A stretch of DNA of 64,000 nucleotides, from positions 316,594 through 380,593 of the forward strand of contig SCUL01000002.1 of NCBI GenBank assembly GCA_004297205.1. The letters run 5' to 3'. Within the stretch, counting starts at the first letter, position 1. The number at the start of each line of letters is the position of its first letter. Position numbers and translations under genes: made by a program. The notes under the pieces are model-generated. The model had not been told where the DNA came from and did not search any database. It saw only the letters and a program-made list of their open reading frames with translations. This stretch comes from Patescibacteria group bacterium (lineage in GTDB: Bacteria > Patescibacteriota > Patescibacteriia > 2-12-FULL-57-11). Below, piece after piece: positions 31,191 through 53,260 of the stretch.

Positions 31191-32300
31191 CTACGGGGTC
31201 GACGTCGCCGTCGAGGTCGGCGCGGTCGGAGCAGGCGCGGCGGGCGCGGCCACGGCGCGCAGCGAGTTCGCCATCATCTCGTAGGTGCGGCGGAAGGCGG
31301 CCTCAGAGCGGCCGCCGAGCGTGTACGCGAGCACCAGGACGCGGCCCGGCGCGATCGCCACATAGCTCGTGAAGCCGTCCGGGCTGCGCACGCCGGACAG
31401 GCCCGAGCGCGTCGTAAAGGGCTGGATTTGGGAGCGCGGAACGCCGGGCGAACGTTCCAGGTACCACTCGGTCAACGGCAGGTTGTCGACATTGTCCTCG
31501 AGCAGCACCTGCACGAACTCGCCGCTCGCGGCGATCCAAGCCACGGACTGGCTCTCGGGATCAATGACGTTGCGGCGCCAGGCCACGGGCGCGAGCAGGC
31601 TGTAGCCGGGTTCGGTGAACAGCATCACGGACGAGGTGGCCGCGATGAGTTCCGCCCGGGCGCCCGCCGCCGGATCGTACAGGTTGAAAACTTCGGCGCC
31701 GTCGAGGAAGCCGTCGTCGTCGGTGTCCGGACGGTTGGGGTTGGCGCGGTAGAGCAGCTCCTCGAGGTCGGTCAACCCGTCCACGTCGCTGTCGGCGGCC
31801 AGGCGCACCGGGCCGGTCGGCGCCGGGGCGTTGACGTTGGCGTTCTGGTTGGTGTTGGCCGGCGTGCTTGTGGTCACGGCCGGGGTGGAAGTCGTGACGG
31901 CCGGGGTTGAGGTGGCCGGCGCGTTCACGTTGGCGTTGGCATTGCGGTTGACGTTCACGTTCGCCGGACGGTTGGCGTTCACGTTGGCCGGACGGTTGAT
32001 GTTGGCATTGGCAAGCGGCGCGGGCGCGGACGGGGCGCGGCCAAAGAACCACCAGCCGGCAAAGCCGAGGCCTCCCAAGACGACCAGACCGACCACGATG
32101 AACAGCCAGAGCGGCGGCCGAGCGGCTCTGGCCGGGGCCTCGATCGGACTGCGCGGCACGGCGGCCTGCGCGGCGGGACTGAGCGGCGCTTCCTTCCCCG
32201 GCACATATGCCAAAGCCGCGCCGAGGTAGCGCTCGGGCATGGTGACGATCCGCTCTTCCGGATCGACGCTCGGCAGCGGGGGGAGCTTGGGCTCAGCCAT
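31191..32300 (-). CDS. Single-pass membrane protein. Asn/Val/Ala-rich low-complexity linker, TSP3-like Ca-binding repeats, C-terminal about 170-aa domain.
   Basis: TM LWLFIVVGLVVLGGLGFAGWWFF. Linker NANINRPANVNANRPANVNVNRNANANVNAP. Motif DSDVDGLTDLEE...DTDDDGFLDGAEVFNLYDPAAG. Confidence 0.55.
   Translation of the reverse strand: MAEPKLPPLPSVDPEERIVTMPERYLGAALAYVPGKEAPLSPAAQAAVPRSPIEAPARAARPPLWLFIVVGLVVLGGLGFAGWWFFGRAPSAPAPLANANINRPANVNANRPANVNVNRNANANVNAPATSTPAVTTSTPAVTTSTPANTNQNANVNAPAPTGPVRLAADSDVDGLTDLEELLYRANPNRPDTDDDGFLDGAEVFNLYDPAAGARAELIAATSSVMLFTEPGYSLLAPVAWRRNVIDPESQSVAWIAASGEFVQVLLEDNVDNLPLTEWYLERSPGVPRSQIQPFTTRSGLSGVRSPDGFTSYVAIAPGRVLVLAYTLGGRSEAAFRRTYEMMANSLRAVAAPAAPAPTAPTSTATSTP
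31814..32012. repeat. Low-complexity tandem DNA repeats (gttggcgttcacgtt-like units) encoding the (N-A/V-N) linker, plus a duplicated TSTPAVT unit.
   Basis: Read directly in the DNA. A similar tract occurs at 32564-32729 in the adjacent paralog. Confidence 0.5.
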
Positions 32301-32303
32301 GGA

Positions 32304-33044
32304 TCATGGAGAAACCGTCGTGGTCGACGAGCCCGGGGTGGGCGGCAGGAGACGGCCGGGACCGTTGGGGTCGTAGCCGTTCCTGACTTCGGCGCCGTCC
32401 AGGTAGGTGTCGCCGTCGGTGTCGGCGTTCAACGGATTGGTGCGATAGACGCGCACTTCATCCCAGTCGGACAGCTCGTCGCCGTCGGTGTCGGTCTTGG
32501 TGGGGTCGGTCCCGAGACTGCGCTCTTCTGCGTCGGTCAGCCCGTCGCCGTCCGAGTCGATGATGATCGGACCGTTGACGTTGGCATTGGCGTTGGCGTT
32601 GACGTTCGTGTCCGGCGCGTTGACGTTGGCGTTCTGGTTCGCGTTCAGGTTGGCGTTCACTGCCGGAACATTGGCATTCGCCGCCGGCGCGTTGACGTTG
32701 GCCGCCGGCACGTTGGTGTTTGCGACCGGCGTCGAGATGCGGCGCCAAGTCAGATACGCAGCGGTGCCGATCACGCCGACGATGACCACGCCGATGCCGA
32801 CGAACAGCAGGATGCGCTGGTAGCCCATGCCCGGTTCTTCAAGCGCAGCCAGATCCTGCGGCGCGGGAGGGACGGCCGGACGCTGCACGGGCTTGAGCGG
32901 CGAGGGACCTCTCGCCGGGCTCGGCGCGGACGCGTCGGCGCGAGGCGCGGACGGCCCCGTCCCCGGCGGTGCGGCCGACGGTTCGACCTTGTCGAAGATG
33001 TCGTCCACCGGAAGATTATCTGGCGTATTCTCGAACATAGGCAT
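32304..33044 (-). CDS. Single-pass membrane protein. Asn/Val/Ala-rich linker plus three TSP3-like repeats, ending ...NGYDPNGPGRL.
   Basis: TM ILLFVGIGVVIVGVIGTAAYL. Motifs DSDGDGLTDAEE, DTDGDELSDWDE, DTDGDTYLDGAE. Confidence 0.55.
   Translation of the reverse strand: MPMFENTPDNLPVDDIFDKVEPSAAPPGTGPSAPRADASAPSPARGPSPLKPVQRPAVPPAPQDLAALEEPGMGYQRILLFVGIGVVIVGVIGTAAYLTWRRISTPVANTNVPAANVNAPAANANVPAVNANLNANQNANVNAPDTNVNANANANVNGPIIIDSDGDGLTDAEERSLGTDPTKTDTDGDELSDWDEVRVYRTNPLNADTDGDTYLDGAEVRNGYDPNGPGRLLPPTPGSSTTTVSP
32564..32729. repeat. Low-complexity tandem DNA repeats encoding the NANVNAPAANANV... linker.
   Basis: Hexa- and nonanucleotide periodicity (gacgttggc / gttggcgtt) read directly. Confidence 0.5.
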
Positions 33045-33845
33045 TTAGGGAGTGGCCGTCTCGAGCCGGCCCGGACCGAGCGGATTGTAACCGTTCTTCA
33101 CCTCTTCGCCGTCGGAAAAGCCGTCGCCGTCGGTGTCCGCGTTGAGCGGATCCGTCCCCATCTCGATCTCCTGACCGTTGGTCAGGCCGTCGCCGTCCTC
33201 GTCGCCGGAAGCCGGCGGGATGGTCAGCGGTTGCGGCTCTGCCGGCGGGGCGATGTCCGCGAAGAAGGCGTTGCAGTTCACGGCCTGCTCCCCCGAGAGT
33301 TGGGTGCAGCGGTCGGCGCTGGGATATCCGGCGTACACGTCGCCTTCGCAGGCCGCCGCGGCTTCGGCGCCGAGCGCCGCGCAGACGGCCGGGTCTCCTT
33401 GGGCGCGCCCTTGCGCGGTAACGGCGCGCTCCGTGCAGCGGGTGCGGATGCCGTCTTCCCCGATTCTATCACATTGGCTTGGATCCGCCGCGGCTTCGGC
33501 CGCCGCGCCCACGCACAAATCACGCGCCTGAGCGTCGCCGATGTCGCCGCACCGCGCCGCGTCCTTGGCGGCCACGGCTTCGGCGTATCGTTCGGCATCG
33601 CTGCACGCTTCGGCGCTTTCCCGTTCGGCGCAGCCGCGGGACACGGGCACCGGCTCCTCCCCTTCCGGAGCGGGCGTTTCGCCCTCGGGAGCCGATCCGT
33701 TTGACGGTCGGTTCGAGGCGCTCTGGCCGCCCGGCTGTTCGGACGCGGGCGCCGTGGCGCGCATCCGCCAGACGAGCAACCCGCCCACGACAAGAGCCAG
33801 GACGAGCACGCCGGCACCGATGGCGATGATCATGCGTCGCGACAT
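33045..33845 (-). CDS. Single-pass membrane protein with a Cys-rich ectodomain and C-terminal TSP3-like repeats ending ...[11 protein letters not shown].
   Basis: N-terminal [24 protein letters not shown]. Motifs [24 protein letters not shown]. Confidence 0.55.
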
Positions 33846-33848: not shown

Positions 33849-36800
33849 TCAGGGGAAGAATCCGCCGCCAAAACCGCCGCCCGGCACAGGGGAACTGCCC
33901 GACGGAATGCAGCTGTCAGCCACGCAGATGAACCCGGCGCGGCACGAGACCGAGCAGCGGATGAAGCCGCCGCCCGATGCGGACGTCCGGCAGGCAGGAT
34001 AACTGGGTTCAAGCCGGGCGCAGGTGCACGAGCCGCCGGAGACCACGACGTCTTCAAGGTCTGAGCACCCGCCGCCGCCGGTGTCGGGAATCGGACACGG
34101 GCGCGCGTCGAGGCGGCAGCGTCCGTCCACGCAGGTGCGCGCCGGATCGTCGCACGTTCCTCCGCCGGAGCCGCCCGGGGGCGACCCGCCCGGCGGAACA
34201 CCGACGGCACCGCCCTCTTCGTCGACGACGACGCCGTCGCCGTCCGTGGGGTCGGCGGGGGCTGCGGGGCTGCGCGACGGCACGCAGGCGAACCCTCCGG
34301 GAGGAGGAGGCGGCGGGTCGCCGTAGACGAGCGGGCAGGCGTTGAAGCGTACGGCGCTGACCCGGATCTGGACGCCCGCGCCGGCATCAATGCGCAGCGG
34401 CAGAAGCTGCGGCGTGCGGCTGCAAGTGATGCTGCCGAGGGGCACCGTGGCCGAGCGGCGGATCGTGATCGGACCCGTGCTGACGGGAGCCGTCGCGCCG
34501 ACGGGGGGGCCGACGGTGATCGTCCCCGCGACGACGGCGCTCGTGACTGCCGTGCCGATGGCGCTGCCGATGTCGACCGAGGCGTCGAGCGTGGTGGCCA
34601 CGAAACGGTTCGCGGACGGGGCGATCGACTCCATGGCGCGAATGCAGCCGTACCAGTCGTCGATCATCGAAAAACGACCGGCCGCGCACATCTCCTGGAC
34701 GGAGCCGAATTCGCTGAGATACGTCTCGTCTTCCGCCACGCGCAGCGTGAAATTCCGGTACCGGGGGCCGACGGCTCCGACGGGCGTGCTGTGGGTACGC
34801 TCGTGGTTTTCGCAGCCTTCCGGCGCGCAGCTGGAACCGCGGGAGAAGAAATGGTCGTCGGACTGCAAACCGTCGGACACCAGGATGACGATGCGCTGTT
34901 CCGCCCCGTCGGCATCGAGGATGGCCGTGGCGCGCTCCATCGCGGCCTTGCCCGGCGAGACGTCCCTACCGCTTCCCGACGTGATCATGCGCAGCCCCTG
35001 GACGGTGGTCTTCAACTCCTCACGGCCGATGGCGTTCAGAACGACCAATTCCGGTGCGCCGGTCAACGCGGTCAGGGTCCGAACGTTCCCCTCGTACCGG
35101 CTCCCCTGGTAGAGGATCGGTCCCGACGGGTTGGCGTTCAGGCCGCCGAAGGCCAGGATGCCCATCTTCAAGTCGGTCACCGACCCGGGGAACGAATTGT
35201 AAATCTGGTCGATCACGCCGTCGGCGCCGGCAACCACGTTCTTGGCGATGTCGAAGCGGGACGGCGTGCCGCCGGTGCCGTTCGGCAGGAGGCCCATGCT
35301 GCGCGAGACGTCGAACACCAACAGGACCGAGGTCCGGCGGCCGACGGTGCCCACCGGGGTCAGGTCGGCCACAATCTGCATGTCCGTGTCGATCGTCGAC
35401 GCGCCCGTCTGGCAGGCCGGAATCACCAGGTCGTGCGTCACCGCGCCGCTGTCGACGACGGCCTCGCCCAGCGTGCGGTCGGAGATGAAGCCGCCGGGGC
35501 TGTGCGGCTGGAGCCGGATTTCGAGCTGCGAGAACGTCGGCGGGCAGGCCTGGCGGCAGTCGCCGGAGCAGTGCGTGTCGCGCGTCGCTCCTTCCACGCA
35601 GGAGACGTCGTTCGGTTCGCACAGTTCGTACGGCCGTTCGACGACGCCGTTGCCGCAGTAACCGCCGGAGACCGAGATGCCGCGGCAGACGTTGGTGCAG
35701 AAGTTGCAGGAGCGGCCGTAGGCGCAGGAGGCGCGGGCCCGGGCGATCGACGAGGGGTTGGAGGCGTCGATGTTGTCGGCGCCGCTGTCGCACTCTTCGC
35801 CGGCCGGATTGACGATGCGGTCGCCGCAGACGTTGCGCACGCAGGTGTTCAGGCAGCCGTCGTTCTGGTTGCGGTTGCCGTCGTCGCACTCTTCGCCGGC
35901 CTCGCGCTGGACGACGCCGTCGCCGCAGCTCGAAACGACCGAGCAGGCGCTCCAGGCGCCGAAGCCGGTGCAGGCGGCCACGCAGGTGCGGGAGCGACGC
36001 ATTTCGCGGCCGTCCGGATCCGTGCCGCAGACTTCGCTTTCGGTCTGGCCCGGTTCGCAGATTTCCCCGTAAGAGATTTCACCGTCGCCGCAGTACGGAC
36101 CGAAGTTGCGGCAGTCAGGAGCGCAGCTCGCCGCCCGCGAGGCGTTGTAGCGGGTCGTGCCCAAGCAGGCGGACCCGTCGGCGCAGCCGCCGGCGCCGCC
36201 GAAGTTGCACGTCGCGCCGGAGCCTGCGCAGCGTCCGCCGAGATCACAGACTTCCCCGGCCTGGCGGTTGCCGTCGCCGCAGTGCGGGCCCAAGCCCGTG
36301 CAGAGTCCGTTGCAGCGGCCATAGGTGTTGTTCAGCGAGCCGTCGTCGCAGGCCTCGGGCGGCGAAAGAATCCCGTCGCCGCAGCGCGCCGGAGCGCAGC
36401 TGCCGTAGGTCTTGGTGCAGGTGTCGGAGCACGTCCAGCGCATGCCGCCGGCGCCGCCCGCAATCGTGCACGCCTCGACCCCGGTGTCGCCGATTTCGCA
36501 CTGCTCGCCCGGTCCGATCGAGCCGTCGCCGCAGACGCCGTCCGAGGCGCTGAGGAGCCCCTCGTCGGTGGCGCGCGCCTGGCAGACGTCCTGGAGGCGG
36601 AAGACGTTCAGGATGCCGGTTTCCGGATGGCTGACCGGTTCGACCGGATCGGCCCAGTTCAGGACACGGCAGGTGCCGCCCGTACAGTCGGCATCCTGGC
36701 TGCAGAGCCGGTTGGGATCGGTCGAGCAGAAACGCAGTTCGAACTCGGCGCCGAACTCGAAGCCCCGGCCGCGCTTGCGATACTCGTAGATGCGCGATCC

Positions 36801-39800
36801 GGCCGGGCACTGGTAGGTCTGGGCCGAGGCATTCCAGCAGGTTTCCGCCTCGTAGCCTTCGGCCGTCGAACAGGCCGCGCCCTCCGCGCTCGCCGTGTTG
36901 AAGGTATTGAGCGGATCCTGCGGCAGCGCGCCGCCCAGCACGTTGCCCAAACCCGACTGCCAGGACGGCCAGCGGCTCGTGGACAGGCCGCGGATGTAGG
37001 AGCCGGAGGCCAGGGTCGGGTAGCTGCCGATGCAGCGGTCGCCGGCGCCGCAGTCGGCGTCGCGGATGCAGGTCGTTTCCGGCCGGTCTTCGCAGACCGA
37101 GGCCAGACCGTAGGCCGTTTCCATCTTGGCGCCAACTTCGGCCAGGTCCTGGAGGCGCAGCACGTCGCGCGTGAACTTGTCCTTGGGCGCGCGGCAGGTG
37201 CCGCCGACGGCGCCGCACTCGGCGTCCTGCTGGCAGGACAGCGGGCCGCACGTGGCGCCCGTGCCGCAATCGCCGTCCGTGACGCAGGCGCGGCCGGCGT
37301 CGTCGCTGCACACGTTGACCGAGCAGGTGCGGGCGTTGTCCCCGGCCAGGTTGGTGTTGAAACGCAGGTTCTCCATCATCTGCCGGAAAATCGTCTGCGT
37401 CGTCTCGTTGGCGCCCTCGTTGTAGGACATCAAGTAGACGTTGGTGTAGAGCTGCGGATCGCCGAACTTGTTGCCGGCGTTGATGTAGACGCTGCGGCCG
37501 TCCTGCACGGCGTCGTAGCCGTCCACCTCGACCGGCACTGGAGAACCGGTGAAGCCCTGTTTGGCGTACCAACGGGCCGGCTCGTCATGTGCGCGGTTGC
37601 GGAGGATGCGGATGCCGAAGGCATCGCCCGGCTGGCAGAGGTCGGATGCGCCGGTGCACTGCAAGGGCAGGAGCTTGTCGCCAATGATGCCCAAGAGCGC
37701 GGAGCCGGGCGCGGCCCCTGCGCCGATCGAAACCGCTGCGTCGGCGGGCGACGGCAGGTCGTCATGCCGCCCCGCCTCGCCGGCATCGCGGCAGAAATAG
37801 GTCGAGAAGTTGAAATCGTCGTCCGTGAACGGCGTCCAGGTGCCGTCGGCGGCGCGGCTCGGCCAGGGATTCTCGCAGAGCAAAACCGTGGCCAGTGCGC
37901 TGCCCGAGGCGGTTTCTCCGTAGCAGTGGCCGGCCGTGGCCGAACCGGCGGCGGCGCAGCGCCGCCCGCGGCCGCATGCCAGCTCCTGCGCGGTGATGTC
38001 CCCCGTCGGATCGCAGGCCGCGCCGAAGATGTTGGCCGTGACCGTGGCCTGCGCGGTAATGGTGGCCTGGCCGTTCTGCGGCTGGCCGATGGTGCGCAGC
38101 GTCATGGCCTCGCTCGAGGAACTCGGATACGTGAAGTGGATCGGCGCCGGATCGCCGTCGCGGTCGCCGTCGGAGGAAGCCCAATCCCAGACCCAAGAGT
38201 ACGTGGCGACCGGCACGATCGGCACGACGCGGGCGCCGCGGCGCGAGACGCCCTGGGAGCGGAACACCTTGTCGCTGTCGTCGAGTGTGTCGAAGGAGGC
38301 GCCCGGCGCGTCGTCGCGCGGATCGTTTTGGGCGGTCGAGAAGAGCGACGACTGCGGGATCACGCGCACCTGGTCGAGACGGCAGATTTCCGTACCGGTG
38401 GTGAAACTCCAGGAGGCGTCGCCGGACATGGGCACGCCGTCGATCGAACGCACGCCGGTCTTTTCGGCGTCGGTCAGGTCCGGGTCACCCTTCACGAGCA
38501 CGCGGAATTCGGTGCTCGGTGCCAGCGCCTCGCGCGGCGAGACCTGAAGCTCGGTCACGAGTCCGCCGCCGGCCACCGTTTTCTGCAGGTCGGCGATCAG
38601 CACCGTGCTCGAGGAGACGCAGAACCCGGCCACTCCTGCGCCGCGTCCGGCGGCGCAGGGTCCGACCGTGCGCTCCAGGAGCAACACGTTGCCGATGAAG
38701 GAACCGGCGTCCATGCGCATGTTGAACGTCGCCGCCATCAGCGTGTTGCGGCAGACGTCGGCACCCTCCGGCGTGAACGGCGGAACGAGTTGCGGACGCG
38801 GCGCACAGCAGCCGCCGTTGCCGCAGCCGATCGAGCCGGCCCGGGCGCCCGGAGCGAGCGTGGCGCAGTCGTTGTCGACCGTACAGGAGCAGACCATCTG
38901 GAAGCCGGCCGTGCCGGTCACGGTGTCGCCCGCGGCGTTGCGCGTGGCGACGGTCAGGTCGGCGGTGCCGCCGGCCGCGCCGCGCACGTAGCTGTCCGGA
39001 TCCGGACGGCCGTCGGTGGGACCGCCGAATTCGCACTGTTCCCCGGTTTCCACCGGCACGTTCGTGCCGCAGTAGGCGGCCGAGGTGAAGCTGTAGCCGT
39101 AGCGCGGGTTGGAGCCCTCGAGCGTGCAGCGCTCGGAGCAGCCGTCGCCGGCGTCGGGGTTGCCGTCGTCGCAGGATTCGAAACGGGCAGGTTCGAGGAT
39201 GCCGTTGCCGCAGCAACCGGCGGCAGGGCCGCCCGCGCCCGGCGTGCAGGCCGTGCGGTTGCCTTCGGCCAGGCAGCGCTCGGAGCAGCCGTCGCCGCTG
39301 CGGACGTTGCCGTCGTCGCAGACTTCGCCGGATTCGAGCCGCCCGTTGCCGCAGACCGAGAACGGCCCGGGCAGGGTGCCTTCATTGATGCAGGAGGCCG
39401 AACAGCCGTCGCCGGAAGCGGTATTGCCATCGTCGCAATCCTCCCCTTCCCCGACGTCGCCGTTGCCGCAGGTGGCGCCGCCCCCGGCGGAGCCTTCGTG
39501 CGTGCAACGCTCGGTGCAGCCGTCGCCGTTCAGGACGTTGCCATCATCGCAATCCTCGCCGGCGGTACGCGTGCCGTTGCCGCAGGCCGGCGCCGAGGTT
39601 CCTTCGTTCAGACAGACGGCCGAGCAACTGTCGCCACCTGTCGTCCCGCCATCATCGCAATCCTCGCCGCGCTCGGTGCGCCCGTTGCCGCAGACTGAGA
39701 CGGAGCCGACGGAGCCGGTGAGCAAACAGGCGTTGGAGCAGGATTCGCCGCCGGCCAGCGGGAGCAGATCCTTGCCCTCCGTGCCGCTGCCCGGCGTGCT

Positions 39801-42800
39801 GCGGAAATCGACCGTGCCGACGGCGCCGCCGACCGCGGCCGAGACCGCGGCGTTGGCCGAGGTCCAATCCCACGAGTACCGTCCGCCGTCGAGCGGTTGG
39901 CCGCCGGCGTCGCAGTCGTCCGGCAAGCCGCGGGGGATGACGATGTAGTGGGCGACGTCGCCGATGATCTGGACCGAAGCGTTCGGCGGCGAGACGCTGA
40001 CGCTGGCCACGTCGCACAACGCGCTGTCGTCCTTGGTACGGAAGGTCCAGGAATAATCGTCGCCGTAGTTGCCGTCGGCCAGCGGCGCGCCGGAGCGCGA
40101 GCGCACGCCGTCGTCGCCGCCGGAGACGATGACGCGGTACCAGCTGCTGCGGGCGAGCTGCGCGGCGCCGGACGGACGGATCTGGAAACCCGTGGTGCGC
40201 CCGTCGGCGTCGACCGTGCCCTCCACGGAGAAGTCCGGCACGCCGCCCGCCTCGAGGAAGGCGCGGCACGATTCGTTGACGCAGGTGAACAGCCGGACCG
40301 TGCGGGCGTTGATCGTGGCCGGGTCCATGGCCACGTTGAAGGACGCCGCGACGCGGGCGTTGACGCAGGCTGCGGAACACATCGGCGTGTGTTCGCCCAC
40401 GCGCGGATCAAGGTAGTTGATGTCGAGCACGCCGACGTCCGACTTGCCGGCCGCCGGGATTTCCGCGCGGACGTGGACCGGATTGTCGGTTTCGGTTTCG
40501 TTGAGTGCGGTCGCCACGTAGCGGCAGGAATTCGGTTCCACGGGATCAGCCGCGTCGTCGGCCAGCGTGGCGCGCGTCGAGGCGTCGCTGCCATCGGCAA
40601 GTGCGTGGCTCCAGCGCCAGTCGTAGGCCGTGCACATCAGCAGGTTGCAGTTCGCCGCCGTCGGATCGGCGCGATAGTCGACGGCTTCGCCTTCGCCCGT
40701 GGCCGTGAAGACGGCCGGCGAGACTTCGACGTGATCGACGCCGCAGGCCTCGTCGTTCGGCCGGATGCGGTAGGGCCAGACGTAGTCGCCGCCAGGCGCG
40801 TCGTCGCGGTCGCCGTCGAGCGCGATGCCCTCGACGCTGCGGATGCCGACATCCCCCGCCGCGAGCGTGACCCGGTACCAGGTGCTCGAGGCGAAGGCCG
40901 CTTCCGGCGTGAACGTCATGCGGCTCGTGTAACGCGCGGTGGCGCCGACGACGACGGATTCGCGCAGCACTTCGACGCGGCCGCGCAGCGGCGTGCCGGT
41001 GCAGGCGCCGCTGTCGAAGCCGTCGCCCTGGCCGCAGGCCTCGACCGCGACGTTCGTCGGGAAACTGGCCGGGTCCATTTCGGCCGTGAAGCGCGCCGAG
41101 ATGATGGCATTGGCGCAGGCATCGCGGGAACCCCGGTAGGGCGACGGACTCTGCGTGTCGGTTTCACAGGTGGCTTGTTCCACGACGCGCGGCAGCACGG
41201 GGACGTCACCGGTCGAGAAGCGCCACACGAAAGCGCCGGTCGGCGTGCGCACCGTGCAGTCGGCGCGGCAGGAACCGTCCGCGCAGCAGGACGTGCCGGC
41301 GGTGCAGGAGGCGTCGTCGCGGCACTGGCCGACCGTAAACGGTAGGGAGTTGGAAATGACGCCGCCGAGCGCTTCGACCGAGACCGGACCGGTCGCGGCC
41401 GCAAACGGCACGCGGGCGTTCTGGATTTCGGTGTCGGCCCAGGGGCCGTCCACGGTGGAGGCCTGGCCGTCGAAGAAGGTCACCTCGCCCGAGGTGGAGC
41501 CGAAGCGTTCGCCCAGAAGTCGCACGCGGGTGTCGGCCGGACCGTTATCCGGATCGATGGCGCAGAGTCCCGGATGCGGCACGCCGTCGGTCACCGTAAA
41601 ATTCACGGTGTTGGATTGCGCGCCGTCGGCGCGTTCCAGGCGGATGTTGTGGGCGGCCAGGGAAATGGGGGTGCGGCCGCCGGCGTCGCCGCGGTAAAAC
41701 GCCGGCACTTTGACGGTCACGGCGGCGTCGGTCCAATAGCGTTCGGCGCAGATGGCCGGGAAATCGACGGCACCGTCGGCGGTGGTGCCGTCCGGCAGCT
41801 GGAAGAGCACGCGGCCGACGCGCGCGCCGAAGTTGCTGCCGCGCAGGGTCACGTATTCCGACACCGGACCGGAGCTCGGCTCAATGGCCGTGACGTTCGG
41901 CAGCGTCCCCGCCTCCGGCGACAGGGCGCGGAAACTCTTGCGGTTGGATTCGTTCGTGCCCACGCGCACCCGGACCGTCCCGTCCGTTTCCACGGTCACG
42001 GCGAGCGACGGCACGCGGCCGCGGATCTCCGTCGGGGACCAATCGGCGTCGCTGGTGCCGGCAGCCGAATCCCGCCCGCCGACCGCGAACAGCACGCTGC
42101 CATCCGTGCCCGGATCTTCGCCGAAACCGGCACCCGTCAACGTGAAGCCGTCGCCCGTCCGCCCGCTCGACGGCTCGATGCGGCAGATGCCGGGGCGCGT
42201 CGTAGCGTTGACGGTGAAGACGCCGAGCAGGTTGGGACCGCGGGCGTCGTCGGTGTCGTCCTGCTCCCCGCCCGCCGCGGAGACGCGGATCGGGCCGGTC
42301 ACGGCGCCGGCGGGAACCGTCACGGTGATTTCGCGGTCCGTCCGGGCGCCGCCGTCGCACAGCGCCGCGGTCACGTCGTCGTCCGCGCCGGGACCGCCCA
42401 GGAACGTCACCTGGCCGGAGCCGCCGAAGGCGCGGCCGGCGACGGACACCAGCGTGCCCGGGCCGCCGTCCGTGGGCGAGACGCTTTCAATCATCGGCAC
42501 GTCCACGCAGGTACCGCTGCGGCACACCCCGCCCGCGCAGTCTGCCGGGCCGCCGCAGGACCCGCCGCCGCAAGCGCCGCACGAACCGCCGCAGTCGACG
42601 CCGGTTTCGTCGCCGTCCTGGACGCCGCTGCCGCAATGCCGCGGCCGCACGGCCACGGAGACGCCGGATACCGAGACCGAGTTGTCGTCCAAATCAAAGG
42701 CCGTGCCGCCGATCGAGTGGGTGCCCACCGTCACGCCGGTCGTATCCCAATCCACGGTCCCCGTGAAATCCGGAGACAGCGCCGCCGGAACGGTGCGGCC

Positions 42801-43751
42801 GATGGAGCCGCCGTCGATGGTCACGTCGATCGAAGAAATGCCGGCGTCGTCCACGGCGTGGACCTGGACCGGAATCAAATCGCCTTCAATGACGGACTGC
42901 CCGTCGTCCGGGAAAACCACTTCGGCCAACGACGGCGCGGCCACGTCGACGATGCTGCCGGTACGGAAATCGGCGGAGCAGCCGGACGACGACAGTCCGG
43001 CGCAGGTCAGGTTACGGCCGGAAGAGGAACGCAGGCCGGTCGTGACTTCAATGTGATAATCGGCGTCCGCGTCGAAACAGCGGCGCGATTCGTTGGGCGG
43101 CGGACAAGCCGCGGCCGGCACGAATTCCACGGCGCTGCCGTTTGCCGCATAGGTGCCGTCCACTGGCGCGCCCGCGGCGGTGGTCACCCGGACGTTGCCG
43201 GCCACGCTCCCCGCGTCCACGTTCTGGTTGAAAATCGCGCGCGCCGTGACGTTTCTGATCGGCACGCTGCCGGTCGGGCTGAAGCCGCGCACCACGAAGC
43301 TGTCGGAGCTGGCGCCCCCGCCGCCGAAGCCGCCGCCTCCACCGCCCCCGCCGCCGCCCGCCCCGGGAGTGGCTCCCGTGGCGTCGAGCAGGCTGTTCAT
43401 GACGAACTGGGCGATGGCGTACGACGACAGAACGATGGCCAGGCCGATGACGGCGGAAATGATCACTTTGCGGGCCTTGTCGACCTGCTCTTCGTTGCCG
43501 GCCGCGGTCATCCACAGGAAACCGCCGTACAGAATGAGCAGCACGGCGACGATGCCGAGCAATCCCATGAAGTTGCGGATGATGCGGGCCACGGTGACGC
43601 GCACGTCCGTGGTCCCGAGACCGAGCGCACCTTCCACATCCGGGGTCAGGCCGGTGTTGACCTGTGCCAGGACCGGAGACGCGAACGCGGCGCCGAGCAG
43701 GAGGGCGCCGCAGAGGATCGCGGCCAATCCGAGGAGGCGTTGGCGTTTCAT
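33849..43751 (-). CDS. Giant (3300 aa) surface protein. N-terminal signal peptide plus a conjugative-pilin-like (TrbC/VirB2-type) two-helix module, a poly-Gly linker, IPT/Ig-like domains, at least six Cys-rich CGNG..GEDCDDGN..GDGCS..C repeats, a VWA domain (DVSRS MIDAS) and a Cys-rich C-terminus.
   Basis: Uninterrupted ORF with GC3-rich codon usage. N-terminal about 150 aa are paralogous to the upstream 613-aa protein. Motifs read from the translation. Confidence 0.75.
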   Translation of the reverse strand: MKRQRLLGLAAILCGALLLGAAFASPVLAQVNTGLTPDVEGALGLGTTDVRVTVARIIRNFMGLLGIVAVLLILYGGFLWMTAAGNEEQVDKARKVIISAVIGLAIVLSSYAIAQFVMNSLLDATGATPGAGGGGGGGGGGFGGGGASSDSFVVRGFSPTGSVPIRNVTARAIFNQNVDAGSVAGNVRVTTAAGAPVDGTYAANGSAVEFVPAAACPPPNESRRCFDADADYHIEVTTGLRSSSGRNLTCAGLSSSGCSADFRTGSIVDVAAPSLAEVVFPDDGQSVIEGDLIPVQVHAVDDAGISSIDVTIDGGSIGRTVPAALSPDFTGTVDWDTTGVTVGTHSIGGTAFDLDDNSVSVSGVSVAVRPRHCGSGVQDGDETGVDCGGSCGACGGGSCGGPADCAGGVCRSGTCVDVPMIESVSPTDGGPGTLVSVAGRAFGGSGQVTFLGGPGADDDVTAALCDGGARTDREITVTVPAGAVTGPIRVSAAGGEQDDTDDARGPNLLGVFTVNATTRPGICRIEPSSGRTGDGFTLTGAGFGEDPGTDGSVLFAVGGRDSAAGTSDADWSPTEIRGRVPSLAVTVETDGTVRVRVGTNESNRKSFRALSPEAGTLPNVTAIEPSSGPVSEYVTLRGSNFGARVGRVLFQLPDGTTADGAVDFPAICAERYWTDAAVTVKVPAFYRGDAGGRTPISLAAHNIRLERADGAQSNTVNFTVTDGVPHPGLCAIDPDNGPADTRVRLLGERFGSTSGEVTFFDGQASTVDGPWADTEIQNARVPFAAATGPVSVEALGGVISNSLPFTVGQCRDDASCTAGTSCCADGSCRADCTVRTPTGAFVWRFSTGDVPVLPRVVEQATCETDTQSPSPYRGSRDACANAIISARFTAEMDPASFPTNVAVEACGQGDGFDSGACTGTPLRGRVEVLRESVVVGATARYTSRMTFTPEAAFASSTWYRVTLAAGDVGIRSVEGIALDGDRDDAPGGDYVWPYRIRPNDEACGVDHVEVSPAVFTATGEGEAVDYRADPTAANCNLLMCTAYDWRWSHALADGSDASTRATLADDAADPVEPNSCRYVATALNETETDNPVHVRAEIPAAGKSDVGVLDINYLDPRVGEHTPMCSAACVNARVAASFNVAMDPATINARTVRLFTCVNESCRAFLEAGGVPDFSVEGTVDADGRTTGFQIRPSGAAQLARSSWYRVIVSGGDDGVRSRSGAPLADGNYGDDYSWTFRTKDDSALCDVASVSVSPPNASVQIIGDVAHYIVIPRGLPDDCDAGGQPLDGGRYSWDWTSANAAVSAAVGGAVGTVDFRSTPGSGTEGKDLLPLAGGESCSNACLLTGSVGSVSVCGNGRTERGEDCDDGGTTGGDSCSAVCLNEGTSAPACGNGTRTAGEDCDDGNVLNGDGCTERCTHEGSAGGGATCGNGDVGEGEDCDDGNTASGDGCSASCINEGTLPGPFSVCGNGRLESGEVCDDGNVRSGDGCSERCLAEGNRTACTPGAGGPAAGCCGNGILEPARFESCDDGNPDAGDGCSERCTLEGSNPRYGYSFTSAAYCGTNVPVETGEQCEFGGPTDGRPDPDSYVRGAAGGTADLTVATRNAAGDTVTGTAGFQMVCSCTVDNDCATLAPGARAGSIGCGNGGCCAPRPQLVPPFTPEGADVCRNTLMAATFNMRMDAGSFIGNVLLLERTVGPCAAGRGAGVAGFCVSSSTVLIADLQKTVAGGGLVTELQVSPREALAPSTEFRVLVKGDPDLTDAEKTGVRSIDGVPMSGDASWSFTTGTEICRLDQVRVIPQSSLFSTAQNDPRDDAPGASFDTLDDSDKVFRSQGVSRRGARVVPIVPVATYSWVWDWASSDGDRDGDPAPIHFTYPSSSSEAMTLRTIGQPQNGQATITAQATVTANIFGAACDPTGDITAQELACGRGRRCAAAGSATAGHCYGETASGSALATVLLCENPWPSRAADGTWTPFTDDDFNFSTYFCRDAGEAGRHDDLPSPADAAVSIGAGAAPGSALLGIIGDKLLPLQCTGASDLCQPGDAFGIRILRNRAHDEPARWYAKQGFTGSPVPVEVDGYDAVQDGRSVYINAGNKFGDPQLYTNVYLMSYNEGANETTQTIFRQMMENLRFNTNLAGDNARTCSVNVCSDDAGRACVTDGDCGTGATCGPLSCQQDAECGAVGGTCRAPKDKFTRDVLRLQDLAEVGAKMETAYGLASVCEDRPETTCIRDADCGAGDRCIGSYPTLASGSYIRGLSTSRWPSWQSGLGNVLGGALPQDPLNTFNTASAEGAACSTAEGYEAETCWNASAQTYQCPAGSRIYEYRKRGRGFEFGAEFELRFCSTDPNRLCSQDADCTGGTCRVLNWADPVEPVSHPETGILNVFRLQDVCQARATDEGLLSASDGVCGDGSIGPGEQCEIGDTGVEACTIAGGAGGMRWTCSDTCTKTYGSCAPARCGDGILSPPEACDDGSLNNTYGRCNGLCTGLGPHCGDGNRQAGEVCDLGGRCAGSGATCNFGGAGGCADGSACLGTTRYNASRAASCAPDCRNFGPYCGDGEISYGEICEPGQTESEVCGTDPDGREMRRSRTCVAACTGFGAWSACSVVSSCGDGVVQREAGEECDDGNRNQNDGCLNTCVRNVCGDRIVNPAGEECDSGADNIDASNPSSIARARASCAYGRSCNFCTNVCRGISVSGGYCGNGVVERPYELCEPNDVSCVEGATRDTHCSGDCRQACPPTFSQLEIRLQPHSPGGFISDRTLGEAVVDSGAVTHDLVIPACQTGASTIDTDMQIVADLTPVGTVGRRTSVLLVFDVSRSMGLLPNGTGGTPSRFDIAKNVVAGADGVIDQIYNSFPGSVTDLKMGILAFGGLNANPSGPILYQGSRYEGNVRTLTALTGAPELVVLNAIGREELKTTVQGLRMITSGSGRDVSPGKAAMERATAILDADGAEQRIVILVSDGLQSDDHFFSRGSSCAPEGCENHERTHSTPVGAVGPRYRNFTLRVAEDETYLSEFGSVQEMCAAGRFSMIDDWYGCIRAMESIAPSANRFVATTLDASVDIGSAIGTAVTSAVVAGTITVGPPVGATAPVSTGPITIRRSATVPLGSITCSRTPQLLPLRIDAGAGVQIRVSAVRFNACPLVYGDPPPPPPGGFACVPSRSPAAPADPTDGDGVVVDEEGGAVGVPPGGSPPGGSGGGTCDDPARTCVDGRCRLDARPCPIPDTGGGGCSDLEDVVVSGGSCTCARLEPSYPACRTSASGGGFIRCSVSCRAGFICVADSCIPSGSSPVPGGGFGGGFFP

Positions 43752-43752
43752 A

Positions 43753-45594
43753 TCAGCGGCCGGGCGTGACGGCGCCGGTCACGGGGTTCACGACGCAGGC
43801 GGAGGCCGAAGGCGTACCGTTGCAGCAGTAGGCGTCGCCCGGCCGGCAGCGGCCCACGGCGGGGGTCGCGGCTGCCGGGTAATAACAGTTCTGCCGGGTG
43901 TCCTGCACGGCCGAGCCGATCGACGGCACGTAGTTCGTCTCCTGCAAAAACAGGCAGTGCTGGAGCACGGCGGCGCTCTTGGTGGGCTGGGTGCTGGTGG
44001 CCGAGCCACCGGCGTCGTCGACGTGTTCGCCGTACCAGGCGTAGCAGGTCGGCTCCTCGGGCGGCAACGGCTGTGGGGCCTGCGTCACCGGCATGGCTTC
44101 GCTCGAGAACGTCAGCAGACGCATCAGCTTGGAGAAACGGATGCGGACCGGCGCGTCGAAGGCCACGCGTCCTTCATCGAAGTTCGGGCTGATGGCGTCG
44201 ACCGCCGGCGGCACCAGGTCGATTTCGTCCGTGGTGCGGAAATTCCACGCATGGTCGTCGGCGCCCGGGCCTTCGGCCGTGCCGTTGCCGTTGCCGTCGA
44301 GCGAGTTGCCGGAGACGTCGGTGGCGCCGTCCGACGGATACCGCGTCGGATCGGCCACAGGCGGCGTGTCGGAGAGCGTCGCGGCGCGGATGGTGGCGGC
44401 GATATTGGAGGAGCCCGGCAGGCAATAGACGTTGCCGCCGCAGGAGTTTGTCCCGCACAAGTCGTTGGTCACGAATTCGATCGTCCGGTAGCGATTGCCG
44501 ATGGCGACCGATCCGGGAACGATGGCGCCGCCCGCTTCGATGCGGACGTTGGTGAAGGCCGGCAGGTCGCCGGTGAGCGACGTCGGATCCATCGCCTCGT
44601 TGAACGTCACCTGGACCACGGTGTTGCGCGGATTGGTGGAATCACGGAACGGCACGACGCTTTCGACGACCGGCGGCGTCAGGTCGATGAACGTACCGAC
44701 CGTGAAGTCCCAGAGGTAGCCGCCGGCGAAAATGCCGGCAAAAGCGGCCTCGCCGTCGGCTTTGCGGATGGCAGAGCCGAGCTTCACCTGATAGGCCGTG
44801 TCGGCCGAAGGCGAGCCCAGGAGCGGCGGGATGAACACGAAGGTCTGGCGGTCCGGCGTGAAGGCCACGCGCACGTCGGCGCTCGCGAGCGCCGAGCCTT
44901 CTCCGGCCGAGGCCGCGAAAATCTTGACGTTGGCGTCTTCCAGCGCAGTCGGCGCGCCGCCGCCCGGATAGTCGTCGGACAGGTCGTCCGGCGTGCCCTG
45001 GTCGTCGTAGCCGCGCACGAACGAGGCGATCTGCATCGGCTCCTTGAAGGTCACGATGATGCGGACGTTGCGCGGCACGTCGGTCTGGCCGCGGCCCGGG
45101 TAATGGCTTTCGATGATGCCGTTGCCGAGCGCGCCGGAGAGCGGGATGGATCCGCCGATGCCTCCCCCGCCACCTCCGCCGCCTCCGCCACCGCCGGCTC
45201 CCGTGGCTTCAAGCAGACGGCTCAAAACGAATTGGGTGATGGCGACGGATGACAAAATGATGGCCAGCCCGATCACGGCCTGGGTGATGACACGGCGCGC
45301 CTTGTCGACCTGCTCTTCGTTGCCAGCCGCGGTCATCCACAGGAAACCGCCGTACAAGATGAGGACGACGGCGATGATGCCGAGCAGGCTCAGGAACGTC
45401 CGGATGATGCGGGCCACGGTGATGCGGATGTCGGTGGTGCCCAATCCCAGCGCGCCTTCCACTCCGGGAGTGAGTCCCAAATTCACGGTGGCGGCGTGCG
45501 TCACCTCCGGAACGCACAAAAGGACCGTCCCGGCGATCATCATCGCGAGGAGCAGTCCGGTGGTTGCGGTTGTGCGATCGAAGATGCGATGCAT
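43753..45594 (-). CDS. Surface protein (613 aa) with the same pilin-like N-terminal module and poly-Gly linker, followed by an Ig-like ectodomain.
   Basis: N-terminus aligns with that of the giant protein (GLTP.VEGALGLGTTD.R.TVARIIR.F..LLGI.AV.LILYGGFLWMTAAGNEEQVDKAR.VI..AVIGLAI.LSS.AI.QFV). Its stop is separated by 1 nt from the giant gene's start. Confidence 0.7.
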   Translation of the reverse strand: MHRIFDRTTATTGLLLAMMIAGTVLLCVPEVTHAATVNLGLTPGVEGALGLGTTDIRITVARIIRTFLSLLGIIAVVLILYGGFLWMTAAGNEEQVDKARRVITQAVIGLAIILSSVAITQFVLSRLLEATGAGGGGGGGGGGGGIGGSIPLSGALGNGIIESHYPGRGQTDVPRNVRIIVTFKEPMQIASFVRGYDDQGTPDDLSDDYPGGGAPTALEDANVKIFAASAGEGSALASADVRVAFTPDRQTFVFIPPLLGSPSADTAYQVKLGSAIRKADGEAAFAGIFAGGYLWDFTVGTFIDLTPPVVESVVPFRDSTNPRNTVVQVTFNEAMDPTSLTGDLPAFTNVRIEAGGAIVPGSVAIGNRYRTIEFVTNDLCGTNSCGGNVYCLPGSSNIAATIRAATLSDTPPVADPTRYPSDGATDVSGNSLDGNGNGTAEGPGADDHAWNFRTTDEIDLVPPAVDAISPNFDEGRVAFDAPVRIRFSKLMRLLTFSSEAMPVTQAPQPLPPEEPTCYAWYGEHVDDAGGSATSTQPTKSAAVLQHCLFLQETNYVPSIGSAVQDTRQNCYYPAAATPAVGRCRPGDAYCCNGTPSASACVVNPVTGAVTPGR

Positions 45595-47801: not shown

Positions 47802-48395
47802 CTATTCGGAGTAAGACGGCGTCTCAAAACTGGTGATCTTGTCGATGGGGAGCCCGCGCAGCCAGACACGGCCGGTGATCTGGTTCTTGTGTACCGGACC
47901 GAAGCTGCGCGAGTCGAGCGAGGACGGACGGTTGTCGCCCATCACGAAATATTCTTCGGCGCCGAGCGTGACGCGCTTGTCGCCCGGGGTGGGCACGGTG
48001 CCGAGGTAGGCGTACTCATCCAGGAGCTGCGGTTCGCTGTCACCGGCCATCTGCACGAACACCTGCCCGCCTTTGACGACGACCGTCTCCCCCGGCAGGC
48101 CGATGACGCGCTTGATGAAGAACTGCCGCGGGTCGTTGGGGTAGCGGAAAACGACGATCTCGCCGCGCTCCGGTTCCCGCAGGCGGTAGGAGAGCTCGTC
48201 GATGATCAGGTACTCGTGGTCGTAGAAGTTCGGCTCCATCGAGGCCCCGCGCACCGAGAACGGCTGGATCAAGAAGTAGCGAACCAAAAAGACGATCGCC
48301 CCGGCAATGATGACCACGCGGGCGATCTCAGCGACGTACCCGAAGAAAACGGCCGCTCCGGTCTTCGCGACCGGAAGCTGCGGAGTGTCGGACAT
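47802..48395 (-). CDS. lepB: Signal peptidase I.
   Basis: GASMEPNF (Ser box), KRVIGLPGE (Lys box), GDNRPSSLDSR. Confidence 0.85.
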   Translation of the reverse strand: MSDTPQLPVAKTGAAVFFGYVAEIARVVIIAGAIVFLVRYFLIQPFSVRGASMEPNFYDHEYLIIDELSYRLREPERGEIVVFRYPNDPRQFFIKRVIGLPGETVVVKGGQVFVQMAGDSEPQLLDEYAYLGTVPTPGDKRVTLGAEEYFVMGDNRPSSLDSRSFGPVHKNQITGRVWLRGLPIDKITSFETPSYSE

Positions 48396-48426: not shown

Positions 48427-49426
48427 TCAAACGCCCCTCTCGATCACCTTTTTCGAGAGATTCCAGGCATTGGCGTGCTGGAGCATCCCCAGATACGACT
48501 CCGTCCGGGCATAACTACCCGGATCCACAGTCCGCAGTTTCTTGAACATCCTCCGCCGTGTTTTTGTTCGCAAGACACGGTGATGCGGCAACGTGACATA
48601 CCCGAGAAAGTCGATGCCTTGCCCAAGCTTCCGCAGGATGACTTTTCGCGGATGGAGTTCCAATCGGAGCTGATTCCGAAGAAAAGCGCGCATCGGCGGC
48701 AGAAGTGAAACAAGCTCCACCGGATCGTCATGCAGCAGGATGAAATCGTCGGTGTAGCGGAGATAGCGCTTCACGCCCAGCCGTTCTTTCACGAAATGGT
48801 CGAAGGAATCGAGATAGACGTTCGCAAAAAGTTGCGATGTGAGATTGCCGATCGGGACGCCAATTAGCTCTCTCTCTCTCTCCGTTATTATCAACAGGAG
48901 GATAGCTTTCGATGGTCCGACGCAGGAGCTCCAACGTTTGCGGATCGCTGACCCGACGACCGAGCAGTCGGAGCAGCACGTCGTGGGAGATGCTGTCGAA
49001 ATACTTGCGAATGTCGCACTTGAGCGCCCAGCACGGACCGGTGAAGTTGCCGCTCACGCTGCGGGCGAACGTCTCGATCCTCCGAACGGCGGCGTGCGTC
49101 CCCTTTCCGATCCGGCAAGAGTAGGAATCGAAGATGAACGACTGTTCGCACAGAGGCGCAACGACGCGGGAAACGGCATGGTGGACGACGCGGTCGCGGA
49201 CCGTCGCCTTATGGATAATGCGATGTTTTGGGTCGAAGATGTGGAACTTCTTGTACGGACCGTGACGATATCGGGCGGACGCAAGATCTTCGGCGAGTGC
49301 AAAAAGATTGTCCTCAAGATGACGTTCGAACCGCTGCACGTCCGGCTTGGCGCGCTTGCCGCGCCGAAACTCGCGCCAGGCGCAAAAAAGATTTTCCGGA
49401 GAAACGATCTGTTCGAATATGCTCAT
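48427..49426 (-). pseudogene. DGR reverse transcriptase, split into two overlapping frames (49426-48728 and 48894-48427) by a frameshift at a (GA)7.5 tract.
   Basis: RT motifs 1-3 in the upstream frame. IGVPIGNLTSQLFANVYLD (the DGR-type IGxxxSQ motif), YLRYTDDFILL (YxDD) and a FLGY thumb in the downstream frame. The frames are offset by 1 nt across ctctctctctctctc (48868-48882). Confidence 0.75.
48868..48882. repeat. Dinucleotide repeat (CT)7.5 (minus-strand (GA)n, coding ERERE), at the RT frameshift.
   Basis: Read directly. Adding one GA unit would restore a single RT reading frame. Confidence 0.7.
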
Positions 49427-49760
49427 ACATGAATCCTCCGTCTTCCAGGCGACTTACGACGTGCTCAAGGACCTGCACGTCGCGCGGCGGTCGTTCGCCA
49501 AGTCGGAAAAGTACGCGCTGGGTGAACGAATGGAGGAGACGCTGCTGAACGTTCTGCTCGGCATCATCGACGCGGGACAGGCCAAACAGGAGTGGAAACT
49601 GACGGGCATCGACGCAGCGCTTCGGGAGTTGGAAAAAACGAAGATACTCCTTCGCCTGGCCAGCGACCTCGGACAGATCCAGGAACGACGGCTGATTTCG
49701 TATCAAGAATCGCTCCAGAAAATCGGACGGATGCTCGGCGGCTGGCGCAGGGCGATATAG
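49419..49760 (+). CDS. avd: Avd-like accessory variability determinant (four-helix-bundle, 23S rRNA IVS protein family).
   Basis: 113 aa. FAKSEKYALGERMEETLLNVLLGIIDAG ... IGRMLGGWRRAI resembles Bordetella-phage bAvd (..VGRILGSWIARV). Transcribed divergently from the RT, with overlapping start codons. Confidence 0.6.
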   Translation: MLIHESSVFQATYDVLKDLHVARRSFAKSEKYALGERMEETLLNVLLGIIDAGQAKQEWKLTGIDAALRELEKTKILLRLASDLGQIQERRLISYQESLQKIGRMLGGWRRAI

Positions 49761-49798
49761 CAACGCTCCGATTGCGCGGAGCATTGCAGGCGAGACAG

Positions 49799-50178: not shown

Positions 50179-50211
50179 CGGCCGAAGCCGAGGGCTGATC
50201 GCCGAGAAGCG

Positions 50212-53223: not shown

Positions 53224-53260
53224 GAAAACCGGCCGCCGCCAACCCATCCGCCCGCCCGTC

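Follow-up and report, generated by a model that had tools for sequence, protein, structure and literature searches.

What is a pilin-like module doing at the start of a surface protein of 3300 amino acids (aa)? This question is raised by a 64,000-nucleotide (nt) stretch of DNA from a Patescibacteria group bacterium (assembly GCA_004297205.1, contig SCUL01000002.1, positions 316,594 to 380,593), hereafter the window, in which two adjacent genes encode proteins of 613 and 3300 aa with closely similar N-terminal modules. A reading made from the letters of the window alone (the sequence-only reading) had proposed that both are surface proteins anchored by a module resembling conjugative pilins. 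Our analysis confirms that the feature is real. The pair is a conserved version of a protein type that has been recognised only recently, and we infer its function from sequence. We assign a probability of roughly 45% to the reading that the genes encode a pair of adhesin-type surface proteins in which the module is a working VirB2-like pilin unit that engages the partners of free-standing pilins.

A shared PF18895 pilin module on two adjacent genes

The two genes and their N-terminal parts occupy the following positions of the window.

43753-45594, minus strand: gene 1, the 613-aa pilin-Ig fusion (open reading frame, ORF, and translation)
45202-45492, minus strand: gene 1 pilin module, mature residues ~35-131 (custom pilin hidden Markov model, HMM, 147.5 bits)
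45148-45201, minus strand: gene 1 Gly linker, residues ~132-149 (sequence, predicted local distance difference test, pLDDT, <50)
45154-45453: DNA repeat copy B, family D3, in gene 1
33849-43751, minus strand: gene 2, the 3300-aa pilin-giant fusion (ORF and translation)
43374-43664, minus strand: gene 2 pilin module, mature residues 30-126 (PF18895, 38 bits)
43305-43373, minus strand: gene 2 poly-Gly linker, residues 127-149 (sequence)
43329-43628: DNA repeat copy A, family D3, in the gene 2 pilin module

Both ORFs are found where the sequence-only reading had placed them, and a single nucleotide separates the stop codon of gene 1 from the ATG of gene 2 (TGA-T-ATG). The GC content at third codon positions is 0.86-0.88 in both ORFs, comparable to that of adjacent genes with clear identities, and overall GC is ~0.69-0.71 over the gene pair (0.50-0.71 in the window overall). 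A DNA repeat search aligned copies A and B without gaps over 300 nt at 79% identity, in agreement with the earlier estimate of about 80%, and the mature modules are likewise 79% identical as proteins over the pilin profile columns. The signal peptides are unrelated in sequence, such that the earlier figure of about 150 shared residues holds for about 105-115 residues plus the poly-Gly linker but not for the leaders. A promoter and terminator scan of 29-48.5 kb gave the same counts as in shuffled sequence.

Each protein carries exactly three hydrophobic segments (signal peptide, helix 1 and helix 2), all within the first ~130 residues, and the hydropathy scan reveals no further membrane anchor in either, with no hydrophobic segment past residue 140. 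In the gene 1 product, a signal peptide (residues ~1-34) is followed by the hairpin (~35-131), the linker (~132-149) and approximately four Ig-like beta domains (150-613). Its hydrophobic segments lie at 56-92 and 101-128, and its match to PF18895 at residues 66-123. AlphaFold models place helical hairpins at residues 55-87/92-129 of the 613-aa protein and 50-82/87-124 of the giant, with pLDDT values of 90-96, and a disordered Gly linker follows each. The signal peptide and paired helices described earlier are thus visible in the hydropathy, and the paired helices and linker in the models. Both leaders are of the Sec type and, by the -3/-1 rule, would end VLA↓Q and THA↓A; membrane orientation was likewise assigned by rule. 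The Gly fraction averages 0.33-0.34 in the 30 residues after the module across 88 mid-size and 73 giant ORFs, and the Gly-rich linker is therefore a family feature.

Profile matches establish both modules as members of PF18895 (T4SS_pilin; gathering score 26.6 bits). The 613-aa protein scores 28.4 bits (31.7 for residues 1-150 alone) and the giant 32.9 bits (38.0-38.4 for the module alone), all above the gathering score, and the leader, two long hydrophobic helices and short polar loop of this family are evident from hydropathy and AlphaFold. Profile searches thus placed the module in a pilin family and not in an unrelated one. The NCBIfam pilin-like conjugal transfer protein NF045849 is matched below its cut-off, and a pilin HMM run on the window matches only the two known modules. 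Two other types of surface protein were considered and rejected. A type IV pilin is ruled out by the Sec-type leader, the two helices and the absence of the G↓F/M-x-x-x-E motif, and a sortase/LPXTG anchor by the lack of a C-terminal sorting signal in the sequences and of any hydrophobic segment beyond residue 140.

The claim that the topology resembles TrbC/VirB2 pilins of type IV secretion systems (T4SS) stands with respect to PF18895, but is not carried by the classical family profile, by hhalign probability or by fold searches (see below). The giant module matches PF04956 (TrbC/VirB2) over profile positions 2-97 of 98 at 17.4 bits (E=0.0054), below the gathering score of 27.9 bits. All 55 aligned modules and free pilins match PF18895, and 29 of the 55 match PF04956 at E<0.01 (best E=3.1e-6). 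When the module was compared by hhalign with four annotated plasmid VirB2/TrbC genes, 69 columns aligned with 29% identity (E=0.0029), running collinearly from the leader's end up to and including helix 2, at a low probability of 10.6%. Like classical TrbC, VirB2 and TraA, the fusion proteins have a leader that signal peptidase would remove and two hydrophobic helices joined by a short polar, positive loop, with a W-M-(F/T)-(G/A) turn ending helix 1, and the collinear profile alignment and sub-threshold PF04956 matches agree with this likeness. They differ from the classical pilins in missing the family threshold, in yielding no fold-level match with Foldseek and in size, given that classical pilins are small subunits of roughly 70-120 residues when mature, whereas these proteins have 613 and 3300. 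The classical pilins are also often C-terminally trimmed or cyclised and are encoded beside virB3/virB4, and to our knowledge none carries a fused folded domain.

Cargo, conservation and free pilin relatives

In the 613-aa protein, the PF18895 match is followed by Big_5 (Pfam, 55.6 bits). Its AlphaFold model has a mean pLDDT of 86.9, with about four beta-sandwich domains above 90 after a linker below 50, and Foldseek matches this model to generic Ig arrays only (L,D-transpeptidase Ig domains, SbsC and titin), without a functional lead. The giant continues beyond its linker as follows.

39732-43304, minus strand: Ig-like stalk, residues ~150-1340, with Big_7, three TIG stretches, Big_5 and Cys-rich knots (Pfam on sub-segments)
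39102-39692, minus strand: Cys-rich acidic block 1, residues 1354-1550, five CGNG..DCDDGN..GDGCS..C units (TIGR02232, DUF4215, motifs)
36552-39101, minus strand: central conserved region, residues 1551-2400, weak Big_5 and DUF4215 matches only (conservation profile)
35532-36533, minus strand: Cys-rich block 2, residues 2407-2740, six CG[DN]G-type units (DUF4215, motifs)
34857-35339, minus strand: VWA-like domain, residues ~2805-2965 (sub-threshold VWA_2 match and motifs)
33852-34304, minus strand: Gly/Pro- and Cys-rich tail, residues ~3150-3300, lineage-specific

The Ig/IPT-like domains named in the sequence-only reading were recovered by Pfam as Big_7, three TIG stretches and three Big_5 stretches, together with DUF4215 (86 bits versus a cut-off of 27). 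Where six or more cysteine repeats had been proposed, there are 11 distinct CG[DN]G-type units in two blocks, and TIGR02232 matches in seven stretches (149.8 bits versus a cut-off of 20.8, E=1.2e-44). Block 1 overlaps DNA repeat families D1 and D2, and D1 copies lie at 35877-36541 in the area of block 2. The Cys-rich tail is likewise confirmed, with 11 Cys among the last 100 residues, and the total of 161 Cys in the giant fits an extracytoplasmic location. The proposed VWA domain with a metal-ion-dependent adhesion site (MIDAS) fared less uniformly. A DxSxS MIDAS-type motif (DVSRS) is present at residue 2814, IVILVSDG lies about 140 residues further on at ~2954, and VWA is confidently matched near the C-termini of three of 10 orthologues tested (L011, L021 and L023; E down to 1.9e-14) and weakly in a fourth, but the VWA_2 match of the giant itself reaches only 18.7 bits versus a cut-off of 27 (E=0.0028). 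Residues 2700-3300 have no match among PDB sequences. The central region includes conserved islands at 1951-2000 and 2051-2150, and residues 1940-2400 yielded no significant Pfam or PDB sequence match.

The 120 listed homologues of the 613-aa protein are 40-93% identical to it at 82-100% coverage, the nearest among them being 93%, 86% and 80% identical. An exact look-up of the 613-aa sequence itself returned no record. Homologues are 552-660 aa at full length, and all but three of the 120 contain both PF18895 and Big_5. A profile search of 1.84 billion cluster representatives with the 613-aa family returned 2425 representatives of 50% clusters at E<=1e-30 (the best 150 all below 1e-147), and a scan of one genome per species found a relative in at least 548 species genomes. 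Named records among these genomes are Uhrbacteria, Falkowbacteria, Komeilibacteria and Magasanikbacteria, which belong to class ABY1 (GTDB), a class not known to have a cultivated member. The relatives are thus Patescibacteria, members of the candidate phyla radiation (CPR), which fits the earlier suggestion of an episymbiotic lifestyle. Many metagenome-assembled genomes that bear the locus are titled 'uncultured Gammaproteobacteria bacterium' (L006, L011-L015 and others) and a few Kapaibacterium or Udaeobacter, and protein names among the homologues mention Methylomirabilis, Binatia and Eisenbacteria. On these clearly Patescibacteria-type loci, such titles look like placeholder or mis-binned labels.

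A giant ORF that starts with a pilin module lies directly downstream of the ~600-aa gene in 73 of the first 85 loci, and follows it in almost every locus whose downstream DNA is long enough. Complete giants span 901-3577 residues as called ORFs, most of them 2000-3600. Virtually all homologues examined have kept the module, and the arrangement that the sequence-only reading called unusual is so relative to classical T4SS, but is a conserved core feature in this class. BLAST covers residues 1-2700 of the giant in 73-98% of 47 complete orthologues (81-98% for the Ig-like stalk, ~150-1340), the last 600 residues in only 2-27% and the tail (~3150-3300) in only 2-6%. With the N-terminal hairpin as the anchor, the divergent C-terminal part would be the distal end.

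A homologue search with residues 1-150 of the giant found 368 proteins. Nearly all of the best 120 are Patescibacteria proteins that stand alone, measure 115-147 aa, carry PF18895 and end exactly at the start of the Gly linker of the fusions. One free pilin type, of 123-124 aa, matches the modules at 70-78% identity over the mature part (free relatives of the modules have 123-127 aa), compared with only 30-65% for other members of the same pilin arrays. When the two modules are aligned together with 53 free pilins, there are 16 invariant columns, all of them shared by both modules. The module is also the best-conserved segment of the giant, as judged from an alignment of 43 sequences (42 orthologues plus the window protein), with a mean identity of 0.54 at residues 51-100 versus 0.2-0.45 for most of the rest.

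In 74 genomes carrying both proteins, the mean identity of the two modules within one genome is 0.60. Between these genomes, orthologous modules are 49-50% and cross-pairs 48% identical. Because identity is higher within than between genomes, the gene 1 and gene 2 modules do not fall into lineages of their own. This pattern points to modules that are homogenised within genomes by gene conversion, or that may co-evolve with one shared partner. In three genomes (L004, L052 and L053), a free pilin gene sits between the two fusion genes. From these comparisons we propose that the module is not a drifting anchor, and may be more than an anchor.

Two related loci hold arrays of four to seven PF18895 pilin genes that include the free pilins closest to the modules (L086, 8134-9901; L087, 8232-9903). 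Some of these array pilins have a Cys-rich addition between leader and hairpin (206 and 292 aa) and another has one after the hairpin (271 aa). Additions at either end fit a topology in which both termini lie outside the membrane. The arrays adjoin genes for a solute-binding protein and for polysaccharide synthesis.

Neighbouring genes and other features of the window

The genes that accompany the pair in many genomes are listed below.

47802-48395, minus strand: signal peptidase I (LepB, S26), a conserved upstream neighbour (Peptidase_S26, E=7.9e-44)
31191-33845, minus strand: three downstream genes encoding 266, 246 and 369 aa, packed 0-3 nt apart (translations)

The conserved order is LepB-HisRS-S21-YqeY-[~600-aa pilin-Ig]-[pilin-giant]. 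Same-strand upstream neighbours are YqeY in 68 loci, HisRS in 68, LepB in 65 and S21 in 59, counts to be read against the only 65 loci that have at least 4 kb of upstream sequence. LepB is likely to process the two signal peptides. The three downstream proteins each cross the membrane once and combine a low-complexity spacer with bacterial TSP3 repeats (Ca-binding type), and the first two match the TSP3_bac profile. Of 29 loci that extend far enough, 18 have a TSP3-like ORF on the strand of the giant and downstream of it, immediately after it in most cases, and the three TSP3-repeat genes are probable operon partners of the pair. YbeY-FtsA-FtsZ come after them. The TSP3 genes share DNA repeats of ~100 nt with one another and with the Big_7 gene at 13388-15715 (13860-14015; families D4 and D7), and their proteins contain spacers of the low-complexity NANVNA type (family D5).

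Two further probable surface proteins, Cys-rich or Ig-like, are encoded in the window, both on the minus strand and both lacking the pilin module. One (2-1886) runs off the window start and has MopE-type putative metal-binding repeats, and the other (13388-15715) has 775 aa and Big_7.

Between LepB and tRNA-Val lies a diversity-generating retroelement (48427-51054, minus strand) with these parts.

50212-51054, minus strand: target gene, 280 aa, no Pfam match
50236-50360, minus strand: variable repeat, at the C-terminus of the target
49796-49920, minus strand: template repeat

Mismatches between the repeats fall at template adenines in 21 of 22 cases. Two overlapping ORFs (48728-49426 and 48427-48894) together cover the reverse transcriptase, which is thus frameshifted or mis-sequenced. 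There is no second variable repeat in the window, and in the close relative L001 no reverse-transcriptase gene is called at the corresponding position.

A low-GC island (18782-23500; about 50% GC versus 64-70% in its flanks) lies directly after tRNA-Asp and is probably a horizontally acquired restriction-modification island. It includes the following genes.

18988-20091: C5 DNA methylase
20060-20665: Eco29kI-type restriction endonuclease
20662-21129: Vsr mismatch endonuclease
21456-22016: methyladenine glycosylase

Outside the island, GC is about 62-71%, which is unusually high for Patescibacteria. At 53224-54520, a minus-strand ORF without a Pfam match was called (53371-53901), and synteny with L001, L002 and L005 indicates that this position should hold a plus-strand gene for the double-GTPase Der. 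A 95-nt internal repeat (D13, at 53270 and 53792) fits two GTPase domains. A gene for transfer-messenger RNA (8447-8829) immediately precedes and overlaps the IF3 ORF call, and ParB and ParA genes are located at the window end (62149-63975).

What the module may do on such large proteins

We infer from these sequence comparisons that the two proteins are co-expressed at the cell surface and are of the adhesin type. Sec would export the N-terminus of each and signal peptidase I would remove the leader. The two long helices would then insert as a hairpin, with the short charged loop TAAGNEEQVDKAR (which contains KAR) in the cytoplasm and both ends outward, an orientation suggested by the hydrophobicity pattern, the charge distribution and the known topology of VirB2. 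The loop between the helices points into the lumen of those conjugative pili whose structures are solved (PMC11722321), such that a C-terminal extension would point outward. The flexible Gly-rich linker would exit the membrane bearing an ectodomain of ~460 residues (Ig-like) or ~3150 residues, the larger of which probably runs from an Ig/TIG stalk through Cys-rich acidic repeats to a distal VWA-like domain. The module would interact with free pilins or with their handling machinery, making both proteins rare cargo-bearing subunits at the base or tip of a pilin assembly, or docked beside it in the membrane, from where the variable distal end of the giant may contact another cell or surface.

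Several results weigh against this reading. With the module model, Foldseek produced no PDB match at E<=0.001, and its top 50 included no conjugative pilin such as TraA, VirB2, TraM, TrwL or CedA1, in a type of search where helical hairpins carry little signal, and a PDB profile sequence search with the module alignment gave chance-level matches only. Homology to structurally characterised conjugative pilins is not demonstrated, and homology to classical VirB2 is plausible. These negative searches weigh little because solved conjugative pilins have a common architecture despite negligible sequence similarity (PMC9905601). Among the sizeable ORFs of the 64-kb window, a Pfam search for VirB/Trb genes found no VirB4, VirB6, VirB3 or coupling protein. 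T4SS machinery families are also absent from ±10 kb of four related loci, and the pair resides in a housekeeping neighbourhood rather than in a T4SS cluster. The arrays of the closest free pilins are not beside VirB4 either in the two loci inspected (L086 and L087). A cargo of ~3150 residues on a pilin has no precedent, dense packing of such cargo in a helical polymer of the VirB2 type would be sterically impossible, and nothing in the analysis shows that a filament exists in this lineage.

The best-surviving alternative, which we regard as quite possible, is that the hairpin has been exapted and serves only as a membrane anchor. The pair and the TSP3 proteins would then be static parts of the core envelope, perhaps of a surface layer or of a scaffold that spans the wall, with no link to a T4SS or filament. 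The strictly conserved housekeeping order (LepB-HisRS-S21-YqeY on one side, YbeY-FtsA-FtsZ on the other) is what would be expected of a core envelope function, and the occurrence of the pair in at least 548 species genomes, the lack of T4SS genes nearby and the presence of the surface-layer protein SbsC (4uic) among the generic Ig-array structure matches point the same way. The conservation of ~2700 residues of the giant also contrasts with fast-evolving host-range adhesins. However, if the module were an anchor only, it would not be expected to be the best-conserved stretch of the giant or to keep 70-78% identity to one free pilin, polar loop included. The similarity of modules within genomes suggests a specific shared partner, and free pilin genes occasionally sit between the two genes.

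A bolder form of the pilin-unit reading, which we consider unlikely, holds that, in this class of Patescibacteria, a polymer of VirB2-type pilins is a host-attachment organelle, with ~600-aa and ~3000-aa covalent pilin-fusion adhesins at its tip or base that are matched by gene conversion. If true, this would be the first conjugative-type pilin to carry its own adhesin and would supply the 'missing adhesin' of Patescibacteria T4SS.

It is improbable that the proteins are pro-proteins, with the Gly linker serving as a processing site from which the cargo would be released or handed to the wall while the pilin part joins the pool. An S26 peptidase gene is a conserved neighbour, and TraF, the maturation peptidase of RP4 TrbC, is an S26 relative, but the neighbouring S26 protein resembles an ordinary housekeeping LepB. 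A low-complexity Gly linker directly follows the module across the family and free pilins stop exactly where it begins, yet the linker varies in sequence and length, no conserved cleavage motif was seen, and neither protein has another anchor or a wall-binding motif that could retain a freed ectodomain. C-terminal processing has a documented precedent in VirB2-type pilins: TrhA is shortened by five residues at its C-terminus before cyclisation, and TrbC becomes cyclic in a similar way (PMC11722321).

Least probable of all is a generic two-helix membrane family that is a 'T4SS pilin' in name only, its likeness to VirB2 being convergent hydrophobic patterning: the failure to match a solved conjugative pilin by sequence or fold, the low hhalign probability and weak cross-matches to FixQ and cytochrome bd subunit II, which show such helices to be unspecific, would fit it, but the PF18895 and (sub-cut-off) NF045849 pilin-family matches agree, 29 of 55 relatives match the whole length of the TrbC/VirB2 profile, authentic VirB2 aligns collinearly from the end of the signal peptide as far as helix 2, PF18895 genes lie near virB4 in 1135 Patescibacteria assemblies (PMC12102498), and conjugative pilins share their architecture despite negligible sequence similarity (PMC9905601).

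Pilins joined to adhesins are known from other systems, to which the reading of the module as a working pilin unit can be compared. A pilin unit is joined covalently to a receptor-binding part in FimH and PapG (chaperone-usher), in RrgA, GBS104 and SpaC (VWA-bearing tips of sortase pili) and in PilY1 or bulky minor type IV pilins, and a distal VWA/MIDAS domain recurs among pilus adhesins. The fusion proteins share with these a pilin-type unit, a putative adhesive part and a distal VWA-like domain, but neither the pilin folds nor the assembly machines are related, their cargo is far larger (up to ~3150 residues) and they are only proposed subunits of a filament. PrgB of pCF10 and similar proteins are wall-anchored via LPXTG and have no pilin module. 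Like PrgB, a large Ig-like surface adhesin could supply cell contact for a monoderm-type T4SS, but PrgB has no sequence relationship to the fusion proteins. SiiE and adhesins of the LapA/Bap type, which either leave the cell by type I secretion or stay attached through an N-terminal plug, are likewise extracellular proteins of multiple thousands of residues with Ig-like repeats and Ca-binding-type modules. The proteins described here differ from them in having a Sec leader, a pilin hairpin as anchor and heterogeneous repeats rather than an array of one unit.

The closest known relatives are the VirB2-like pilins that are widespread in Patescibacteria, occur in tandem arrays and are essential in Southlakia (PMC12102498, PMC10633639, PMC12857230). 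These arrays comprise 2-11 genes averaging 25% identity (PMC12102498). Those of the Southlakia epibionticum SEML1 T4SS cluster and of Nanosynbacter TM7x share with our pair the PF18895 family, the phylum, the leader and hairpin and the tandem paralogous pilin genes, with 70-78% identity between the modules and one free pilin type. However, array pilins are small and free-standing, whereas here the pilin is the N-terminal ~100 residues of 613 or 3300 aa, the two modules are 79% identical and the locus is a housekeeping one, not beside virB4. The phylum-wide survey based on PF18895 does not discuss long fusion proteins and detected no PrgB-type adhesin or homologue in Patescibacteria (PMC12102498). 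PF18895 genes of 1230 and 1458 bp from Paceibacterales are included in a metatranscriptome study, which does not remark on their size, and extended pilins therefore occur outside this class. Our literature search found no description of pilin-adhesin fusions in Patescibacteria, which does not prove that such fusions are undescribed. Members of the ~600-aa family are named 'Ig-like domain-containing protein' by the Prokaryotic Genome Annotation Pipeline (PGAP) and 'type IV secretion system pilin/Big-like domain-containing protein' by the Joint Genome Institute (JGI). The fusion architecture is thus visible to automatic annotation and, as far as we searched, has not been analysed in the literature.

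These findings matter for annotation, since genes labelled 'Ig-like domain-containing protein' in the CPR include a coherent, syntenic family built on a pilin base, and for the choice of targets in proteomics and cryo-electron tomography of uncultured cells. The pair also offers a natural experiment on the cargo that VirB2-type pilins can bear. Patescibacteria need contact with host cells, and their T4SS and VirB2-like pilins are essential in the one species tested. The phylum-wide survey found no adhesin. A conserved, translationally coupled pair of pilin-fusion proteins in one major class provides concrete candidates for the contact apparatus.

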